IMG/VR virus record: IMGVR_UViG_2675903368_000011
Location: 1 to 9,729 of that record
Direction: 5' to 3' (one strand)
Source of the DNA: a virus
Taxonomy: Duplodnaviria > Heunggongvirae > Uroviricota > Caudoviricetes
DNA: 9,729 bases
Part shown: piece by piece, positions 1 to 3,000 of the stretch
Layout of the letters: the number at the start of each line of letters is the position of its first letter
Numbering within the stretch: position 1 is the stretch's first letter
Made by a program: the position numbers

Positions 1-3000
1 GCGTCGAACTGATTAGCCGCATCGGGCAGGAAGCAGTAGACGAAATCGAATCAAACCATAACCGCCATCGCTGGACTGTCGAAGAGTGCAAGGCGATCAA
101 GGCAGAGTACCAACAGAAACTCAAAGACCTGCGAAACAGCAGAAGTGAGGCTGCATGAATATCTACGAAAGAATTGATGGCAGCAAATACCGAAATATTT
201 GGGTAGCTGGCGACCTGCACGGATGCTACACGAACCTGATGAACAAACTGGATACGATTGGATTCGACACCAAAAAAGACCTGCTCATCTCGGTTGGCGA
301 TTTGGTTGATCGCGGTACAGAGAACGTCGAATGTCTGGAATTAATCACATTCCCCTGGTTCAGAGCTGTGCGTGGAAACCATGAGCAAATGATGATTGAT
401 GGCTTATCAGAGCGTGGAAACGTTAATCACTGGCTGCTTAATGGCGGTGGCTGGTTCTTTAATCTCGATTACGACAAAGAGACTCTGGCTAAAGTTCTTG
501 CCCATAAAGCAGAAGAACTTCCGTTAATCATCGAACTGGTGAGCAAAGATAAAAAATATGTCATTTGCCACGCCGATTATCCTTGTGATAAATACGAGTT
601 TGGAAAGCCAGTTGATCATCAGCAGGTAATCTGGAACCGCGAACGAATCAGCAACTCACAAGACGGGATCGTGAAAGAAATCAAAGGCGCGGACACGTTC
701 ATCTTTGGTCATACGCCAGCAGTGAAACCACTCAAATTTGCCAACCAGATGTATATCGATACTGGCGCAGTGTTCTGCGGAAACCTCACATTGATTCAGG
801 TACAGGGAGAAGGCGCATGAGACTCGAAAGCGTAGCTAAATTTCATTCGCCAAAAAGCCCGATGATGAGCGACTCACTACTGGCCATAGTTTATTGGTTT
901 TCGTAACTGAGTCATTTTATTATTTTATTGCAACTTTTAATCTTTTATAGTGCGAAATAAATGGAGCTGGCATTCATTTCGCACTTTATGTTTTTGTTGG
1001 ACTTATGTTATTTTGATTGAATTCAATTCAGTTAAAAAAAGAAGGTGATTGCTCCATTTATAAATGAATAGTCATCCCCTGTCTTGAATTCTGATGTTAC
1101 TTTATTAAATGCTAGTGTGAAGGCTACAGGTGCATACCCAATTGTTGCGCCAACTTGATATTCATCAACAGTTTTGTTTAGCGATACTGTTGTTTGTTTC
1201 GTCTGTATTGTTTTTCCTTCGAGAGTATAGTTGCGATTGACATCTCGTCTTTCCATACCTGCAAAAATCTTGTATTTGAATCCGCTTGTATCGGACATAT
1301 GCATTAAACCACGGGGAGCCAGCAGACCAAAGCCATTATCCGAATTGAAGGTTTTATCATTACCAATGGCAATGGTTGCGCCATATGCTACATATTGAAA
1401 TAAGTTTCCAGTAACAGCAGAAACTTCAGGGTATAATCCAACATTAGCACCTAAAATATCCATACTTGGTGTCATGGATAGCATCCCTTTTACAGTATAA
1501 CCGTAGCGATTCTCTATTTGATCATCCCATGCATGATATTTTTCTGCCCCAATAATCTCATGAGCTTTATTTTGTACTTTCTGACCGCCTGCGTCGGGGC
1601 CAACAACACCTATGTCAGTACCTAATCGATAGCGAATCCAGTCATTCGCAAGGGAGTTCCATTCAATACCAGTGTGAGTGTATGCACTAAAAGCTCTGTC
1701 TCCAGTTACAGCTGTGTTGTGTCTTTTATTACTGCCTGATGGAGAGTAAATATCTTGCGCAATATGGAGAGATAATTGGCTCGAGTCTGAGATATCGTGG
1801 CTATATCCCAGAAATAAGCCTTGTGAGTAATCATCTCTGTTTTCATGTTTATTGCCATAAATATCATTAAGTATTGGTTGAAACTTCCCTGCATCATCAT
1901 TTGCTAATGATAATGCAAGGCTGTTCGCGATAGCTGAACACGTGGTAAATGACAGAGCAATAAAGACGCCAGCGATGACACTTTTTTTCATATGTTATTG
2001 TCTTCCTTTTTTTTGAATGGTGCGCGTATTTTACATACATGAGTTTGTAATACAAGGTGCGTAATCAATATGATGTTTTATAATTGCGTGAGACAATTGA
2101 TTTATTCGTTTTTTATTGCGGTTTTTATTATCTTTTAATGTAACGGTGTTTTTATTAAGTGTGTTTGCGTGGTGTTTTATGTTTTTTATGATTTTTATTT
2201 TATTAAATTTAAATGCATTAGTAATGGCTATTCTATATAGCAATATAAGAACTGTTACAAAAAAAGGGGGGCAATTACAGGTAGTTATGGATGATGAGTG
2301 AAACAGATATTGGAGAACCGGGGAATGAATGATGTCTGAGTCTTATATATCAGAACTCCTTCGCTGTCGCTGGGGGCTCCTGTGCTTATGTCGTTTCCCC
2401 GATTCGGTTTTGAACGATTACCGAATGTTGAAGAATTATGCCAAAATATAGAAAGGATTTACTGCATGAATACCCAATATTTACAGTATGTTCGTGAGCA
2501 ACTTATGGCAGCTACTGCTGACTTGAACGGAGCAACGAAAGGCCAGCTCGAAGCCTGGCAGGAGCATGCACAATTTGATACTGGTACATACAAACGAAAG
2601 AAGCCGCGCATTCTGGATGTGGTAACTGGCAAGATGATTACGCTGGATAATACGCCGACTTCCGGTAAGCAGTCGTACGCAAAAGGTTCATCCATTGCTT
2701 TGGTCAGCCCGGTTGAATTCTCAACCTCTTCATGGCGCCGCGCGATTTTGTCTCTCGATGAACATCAGAAAGCATGGTTGCTTTGGTGTTACAGCGAAAG
2801 CGTTCGATGGGGGCATCAGGTCACCATAACGCAATGGGCATGGAGCGAGTTTAAAGATTTGTTAAGTAACAGAAAAATTGCAGGTAAGACACTGGATCGC
2901 CTGAAGACGTTAATCTGGCTGGCTGCACAGGATGTGAAGAGCGAACTTGCAGGGCGTGAGGCCTATGAATACCAGACACTGGCATCATTGGTGGGAGTGA

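Follow-up and report, generated by a model that had tools for sequence, protein, structure and literature searches.

A truncated lambda-type Q gene at a mosaic joint with lpxR and a Q82-type late regulator in a lambdoid viral sequence

When a lambdoid prophage keeps only the first codons of a lambda-type Q gene, does its late-gene expression rely on a replacement antiterminator, or is the prophage late-defective? This question is raised by a 9,729-nucleotide stretch of DNA (hereafter the window; positions 1 to 9,729 of IMG/VR record IMGVR_UViG_2675903368_000011, Caudoviricetes), in which a first-pass annotation made from the sequence alone had placed, at positions 817-906, a lambda-type Q gene truncated after about 20 codons at the start of a module swap. 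Lambdoid phages are well known for mosaic boundaries at Q. Our analysis indicates, with a probability of roughly 0.88, that 817-906 is what remains of the 5' end of a lambda-type Q gene, a non-functional stub at a mosaic joint of single origin, and that late control would fall to a Q82-type module situated downstream. The joint itself is already known, as it is annotated both in the GenBank record of phage 434 and in RefSeq, and it is real but ordinary.

The open reading frame (ORF) at 817-906 consists of 29 codons and ends in TAA at 904-906. Its ATG at 817 overlaps the TGA stop codon (818-820) of the ninI phosphatase gene in an ATGA arrangement, as the first reading had described, and its place directly after ninI, with the same overlap, is that of lambda Q. 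Its residues 1-20 match those of lambda Q without exception (20/20 identities, BLASTP E = 4e-13, with J02459 43886-44509 as the lambda Q reference); the short match proposed earlier thus withstood an actual alignment. A phmmer search of the stub against all Protein Data Bank (PDB) chains returned lambda Q as its sole match (7UBM chain Q, E = 2.8e-7). At the nucleotide level, bases 817-877 (61 nt) are the same as in lambda Q, identity with lambda is unbroken over 801-877, and the first changed codon is the 21st (877-879, CTA in the stub vs CCA in lambda), in agreement with the frame divergence previously noted near 876. The nine residues that follow residue 20 are unrelated to lambda Q. The likeness of the stub to lambda Q reflects homology and not chance, because identity to lambda ninI-Q extends leftward, at 96%, over the 723 nt of 164-886.

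Homology to the lambda Q family (PF03589) was found for residues 1-20 only. The helix-turn-helix (HTH) body and the zinc-ribbon arm are absent from the stub, 187 of the 207 lambda Q residues are gone, and a Pfam profile search with the 29-residue product returned no match. In lambda Q, the HTH four-helix body is formed by residues 61-113 and 153-207 and the zinc-ribbon arm by residues 114-152, while residues 1-44 form a "torus" only with the body loaded on RNA polymerase and NusA; residues 1-11 of this torus are a helix that touches the zinc-binding domain of RNA polymerase in the loaded complex (PMC9388147). The part retained in the window corresponds to the first helix and some of the loop of the N-terminal torus. 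Because the HTH body and zinc-ribbon arm are missing, the stub would be unable to bind the Q-binding element (QBE) or to load onto RNA polymerase, and, judged from its sequence, it is a remnant and not a functional member of the lambda Q family.

We compared the window by BLAST with lambda 41269-46455, which includes Q, PR'/qut, 6S, S, R, and Rz. Matches were confined to 1-158 and 164-886; therefore, the lambda Q body and qut are gone from the window, as are the lambda PR', QBE, and 6S region. The last intact lambda-type gene before the joint is ninI. To its right, lambda homology ends within 877-888: mismatches occur at 878 and 881, agreement returns at 882-886, and no similarity is found further right, such that identity across 878-887 is patchy (7/9 in the window and 8/10 in the commoner allele of the stub). 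For intact lambda-type Q genes in the phage and Escherichia coli collections, every megablast match to the window ends at 884-886. The G+C content is 46.8% on the left (nin) side and 35.6% in 887-2314. Alignment with lambda and lambdoid prophages therefore supports a recombination breakpoint at this site, as had been proposed.

Downstream of the AT-rich block, which indeed carries the LpxR-like gene and is followed by a different Q-like gene, the window resembles the rus-orf45-Q module of phage 82. The rus gene is cut to its last five codons and stop, the remainder being missing: phage 82 homology starts at 2315, and megablast matches to rusA-bearing prophages begin at 2315-2321. The Q-like gene encodes a protein of 229 amino acids whose match to PF06323 spans 216 of the 220 model positions. 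It is identical at 202 of 229 residues to phage 82 Q (X92588; 88%, E = 2e-153) and at 228 of 229 residues to phage 434 Q. A sequence search found no relative in the PDB. Profile and prototype similarity together assign this protein to the Q82 family, for which PF06323 stands and which is one of three unrelated Q families (PMC9388147). As aligned, the joint is three-part, comprising the lambda-type nin region with the Q stub, the lpxR segment, and an 82-type module broken inside rus. The module swap of the first-pass annotation thus stands insofar as lambda Q and qut are gone, but it was not a clean Q-for-Q exchange, since three segments are involved. Calling the lambda Q "resident", for its part, assumes that the exchange ran in one particular direction, about which the data are silent.

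The Q82-type gene lies just upstream of a predicted late promoter that is accompanied by a candidate pause element and a terminator (Table 1), and in all three elements the window is like the 82-type unit. The -35, spacer, and -10 of the promoter are kept in Q82-type relatives of 73-88% protein identity, and the relatives' pause element reads TGaTATTTT and is followed by GCC (AR_452 prophage, PhiR47_2, 689R5, and PPompW). It has been shown that the 82 PR' carries an extended -10-like pause element, with GCC at +15-17 and a pause at +25/26, and that this GCC sets the position and duration of the pause and is needed for a long pause (PMC5001585). By registering the relatives' GCC on the +15-17 GCC of the 82 PR' (PMC5001585), we predict a start (+1) at the A at 3174, with the pause element then spanning +6 to +14 and a pause expected near 3198. 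At the predicted +15 to +17, the window and phage 434 read GTA where the relatives have GCC, so that the GC-rich element of Q82-type units was found in neither, and homology to 82-type relatives stops at 3188, directly after the pause element. Pausing could therefore differ in position or duration, because GTA stands where 82 has GCC. The terminator is predicted to fold with -16.3 kcal/mol (z -3.3), and the phage 434 record annotates a terminator at the matching position. By comparison with these relatives, the cis unit is 82-like through the pause element and variant beyond it. The 434-type PR', without GCC at +15-17, could thus be used as a naturally occurring variant for studying pausing in a Q family named as a priority for mechanistic work (PMC9388147).

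If these elements act as their counterparts do, early rightward transcription would read the stub, then cross the lpxR segment in antisense, and reach ylcG and the Q82-type gene. The Q82-type protein would bind its own site at PR' and engage RNA polymerase held by the sigma70-dependent pause, and the polymerase would then run past tR' (3201-3229) and the terminators beyond it to transcribe the lysis and morphogenesis genes. A prophage that has lost lambda Q need not be late-defective, given that a Q82-type replacement antiterminator is present. A truncated lambda Q beside lpxR is accordingly no sign of a late-defective prophage when a complete 82-type Q and qut unit stands 1.6 kb downstream.

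Table 1. Coordinates of features at the Q joint and in the adjoining modules, with the basis of each call.
Feature	Position	Strand	Basis
ninG (lambda Nin 204), 3' end	1..158	+	98.1% identity to lambda L002 1618-1775
ninI, serine/threonine phosphatase (lambda Nin 221)	155..820	+	Metallophos E 3.4e-16; NCBIfam protein-serine/threonine phosphatase E 9.7e-82
Q stub (truncated lambda-type Q)	817..906	+	BLASTP, phmmer, base comparison; phage 434 and RefSeq annotation
Left breakpoint zone	877..888		Last base of perfect lambda identity at 877; survey of 54 loci
AT-rich segment with lpxR, of neither lambda nor 82 origin	887..2314		1.43 kb, GC 35.6%
Hairpin 3' of lpxR	946..988		Inverted repeat; RNA fold of both strands
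lpxR, outer-membrane lipid A 3'-O-deacylase, 319 aa	1032..1991	-	PF09982 E 6.8e-40; Salmonella LpxR structure 3FID
Right breakpoint: last 5 codons and stop of rus (rusA), 82-type module	2315..2332	+	Alignment to X92588 and E. coli AR_452 rusA-ylcG-Q
ylcG (phage 82 orf45 homologue)	2329..2451	+	NF033498 YlcG E 7.4e-13; aligned to phage 82 orf45
Replacement late-gene antiterminator, Q82 family, 229 aa	2466..3155	+	PF06323 E 1.3e-91
Predicted PR'	3139..3167	+	-35 TTGCAA 3139-3144, 17-nt spacer, -10 TATACT 3162-3167; promoter scan
Candidate sigma70-dependent pause element of qut, extended -10-like TGgTATATT	3179..3187	+	Read from sequence
Intrinsic terminator tR'	3201..3229	+	9-bp stem, 4-nt loop, T8 run; terminator scan

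Several points weigh against this reading. The antitermination mechanism is carried over to the window from studies of phage 82 and lambda, and the 82 PR' was compared via relatives and the published description, as X92588 ends at the Q stop codon. In addition, the initial transcribed region departs from 82-type relatives from +15 (GTA for GCC), and the window contains an extra rearrangement at 5578/5580 and ends before the late genes. The stub is also probably translated, because the lambda ribosome-binding site (GGAG, 806-809) and the start-stop coupling to ninI are both retained, which makes a role for the peptide possible; furthermore, all copies of the joint are at least 99% identical, and conservation therefore cannot tell selection from recent common descent.

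Phage 434 (OL657226) has the same genes, order, and joints as the left part of the window, with CPT_434_63 to CPT_434_67 corresponding to ninI, the Q fragment, LpxR, a YlcG-like protein, and a Q82-like protein. Window positions 1-5578 are 99.7% identical to this genome, in which CPT_434_64 is annotated as "antiterminator-like protein" and "lambda Q N-terminal fragment". Besides the single residue in Q, the two differ by one base in the stub (T24 in phage 434 and I24 in the window). The window departs from phage 434 after 5578, where nanS-p is cut and fused to the truncated methylase of another prophage type. A literature search found no paper on the 434 genome or the joint, and the evidence is thus the GenBank annotation itself.

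The alternative left by the first-pass annotation, that the prophage is late-defective since lambda Q and qut were lost and the downstream Q-like gene is no functional substitute, appears unlikely. It would be in keeping with the absence of the lambda Q body and qut, with an initial transcribed region unlike that of 82-type relatives after +14, with the second disruptive joint at 5578/5580, and with the fact that RefSeq calls several neighboring genes in related prophages pseudogenes. However, the downstream Q has its full length, shares 88% identity with phage 82 Q, and is only one residue removed from 434 Q. Phage 434 is a viable, plaque-forming laboratory phage, and it has the same stub, lpxR, Q, PR', and terminator. 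Moreover, prophages with the same joint carry holin, endolysin, spanin, terminase, and portal genes downstream, and their lysis and morphogenesis gene sets, including the head genes, are apparently complete. Reliance on a replacement antiterminator is therefore favored over a late defect, as judged from the late-control region alone, since the window does not reach the lysis and structural genes of this particular prophage.

It is also conceivable, but very unlikely, that the 29-codon ORF has been kept for its product or its translation, whether as a torus-helix peptide acting on RNA polymerase or through effects on ninI termination or mRNA stability. The intact GGAG and ATGA overlap would be compatible with this, as would the finding that the ORF is open in all 54 loci surveyed and that the helix formed by lambda Q residues 1-11 contacts the RNA polymerase zinc-binding domain (PMC9388147). 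Nevertheless, the flanking DNA is equally conserved (at least 99%), leaving no specific signal of selection on the ORF, and two of its three substitutions are non-synonymous (T24I, which is the window allele, and A7V). The lambda Q torus, moreover, folds only with the body bound to RNA polymerase and NusA (PMC9388147), and the 29-residue product is without a Pfam match. A related notion, that a peptide with the first torus helix could interfere with the lambda-type Q of superinfecting or co-resident phages, strikes us as extremely unlikely. We consider instead that the stub likely serves at the DNA level, with the 81 nt of lambda-Q-type sequence at 806-886 providing a portable homology linker by which the lpxR and Q82 cassette can enter phages with a lambda-type Q.

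The reading of the stub as a remnant at a joint of single origin draws on its distribution. The joint was found in 620 of 5,426 complete E. coli genomes (221-nt probe, at least 80% covered) and on 52 IMG/VR contigs, and the genomes that bear it include many Shiga-toxin-producing serotypes, e.g., O157:H7, O145, O103, O111, and O121. The lpxR-ylcG-Q block was likewise present in 620 complete E. coli genomes, in all cases with at least 99% identity, and no block without the stub or with another left flank was seen (620 genomes with the block and 620 with the joint). The stub carries the RefSeq annotation of a pseudogene ("antitermination protein, missing C-terminus"). Across the 54 loci, the stub is near-invariant, with three substitutions seen; the window has the minor I24 allele, while most copies have T24. 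The left context does vary: ninI stands before the stub in 431 genomes, ninH does so in others, and for the ninH-type copies homology to the window starts at 806. A linker role would fit the occurrence of one and the same stub after two distinct nin modules. These alignments make it most likely that the joint arose once, by an illegitimate event, and was then transferred to at least two nin backgrounds through homologous exchange within or beside the stub. One illegitimate joint would thus tie lpxR to a Q82-type late regulator in 620 of the 5,426 complete genomes, many of them Shiga-toxin-producing. Chimerism had to be weighed because the window also has a joint, at 5578/5580, that is seen nowhere else, but with nothing at 817-906 itself to suggest it, and with this joint present base-for-base in phage 434, in the 620 complete genomes, and on the 52 IMG/VR contigs, the chance that it is an assembly or sequencing artefact, or that the ORF is fortuitous, is virtually nil.

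Between the two phage modules, the gene at 1032-1991 is identified as that of an LpxR lipid A 3'-O-deacylase by full-length homology to Salmonella LpxR (residues 24-319 align to 3FID_A 2-296, E = 3.6e-153). Among approximately 50,000 phage records, the segment that carries it was found only in two records of phage 434. Its core (947-2037) is common to plasmid-borne E. coli copies of lpxR, with 78-80% nucleotide identity; these plasmid copies cover 947-2037 only, and no source was found for the stretches on either side of this core (887-946 and 2038-2314). The hairpin 3' of lpxR is also found in the plasmid-borne copies. It is predicted to fold with -19.1 kcal/mol (z -5.6) on the minus strand and -16.4 kcal/mol (z -2.8) on the plus strand, with a T-rich run after the hairpin on the plus strand. 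The hairpin is a possible end of the lpxR transcript and, together with the T-rich run, may also impede early phage transcription toward Q. An Rfam scan of 800-2400 returned zero families.

Morons, like mosaic module boundaries, are an established concept of lambdoid phage genomics. The lpxR segment resembles lambdoid morons in its low G+C content, its opposite strand, its own hairpin, and its position between two phage modules, but differs in that the cargo stands between a 5' stub of Q and a 3' stub of rus, not between intact genes. It behaves as a moron-like cassette antisense to early phage transcription, from which lpxR would be expressed in the lysogen. According to a paper citing Ogawa et al. 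2018, lpxR is reportedly under the positive control of Pch and Ler, which are virulence regulators (PMC6393859). We considered whether a 12-nt repeat, GATGATGAG[C/T]GA, at 861-872 and 2290-2301 might be a target-site duplication at the segment; this was rejected, because approximately two such pairs are expected by chance per 1.5 kb (our own estimate) and the copies lie off the boundaries at 877-888 and 2315. The window also has an 8-nt tandem duplication, ATTTTATT, at 915-930 that is missing from phage 434. Phage 434 is the odd one out in this respect, because nearly all other copies of the joint carry the duplication.

On the nin side, the window and phage 434 both lack ninH, the gene that separates ninG from ninI in lambda, and ninG is followed directly by ninI (158-164). 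Within the lambda sequence, the corresponding gap extends from L002 1775 to L002 1965, where the next match resumes.

A second mosaic joint occurs at 5578/5580. To its left, 1-5578 matches phage 434 and enterohaemorrhagic E. coli prophages at 99.7-99.8%. To its right, 5580-9729 is 99.8% identical to a prophage of another type (E. coli 14EC047), and base 5579 fits neither side. This joint truncates a nanS-p sialate esterase gene to 324 amino acids, vs 616 (a 1,851-nt gene) in relatives, and strips the first 34 codons from a DNA methylase gene, changing the D of its DPPY motif. A 38-mer spanning the joint was absent from the genome-contig and viral-contig collections, the truncated esterase product is not on record, and the window is covered to at most 79% by any complete E. 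coli genome. The joint is either a rare but real rearrangement or an assembly chimera.

An arrangement of a TciB/DUF3927 gene, a small RNA (sRNA), and the nanS-p 5' region occurs twice (4178-4808 and 7436-8091), with 81-87% identity between copies that are approximately 3.26-3.28 kb apart, a repeat accounted for by the mosaic of two prophages. The second of the nanS-p genes, from 7909 on, has no stop codon before the window ends. A match to the Rfam family STnc100 separates each nanS-p copy from the DUF3927/TciB gene (4338-4542 and 7599-7771, both on the plus strand), one scoring 101.5 bits and the other 41.4 bits, which is under the gathering score of 47. These STnc100-type loci are probably prophage "Pas" sRNAs, of which PasD has been described as linked to lpxR and Q and related to STnc100 (2026 preprint).

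Downstream of the truncated methylase gene, as in late regions like those of Shiga toxin (Stx) phages, are two tRNA genes on the plus strand, with anticodons CAT (6576-6651) and TCT (Arg; 6752-6828), the former annotated as tRNA-Ile by RefSeq in the matching prophage. They are followed by a TerB-family gene (6969-7430, plus strand) with one internal stop codon near 7134, which is a pseudogene in the matching RefSeq prophage as well.

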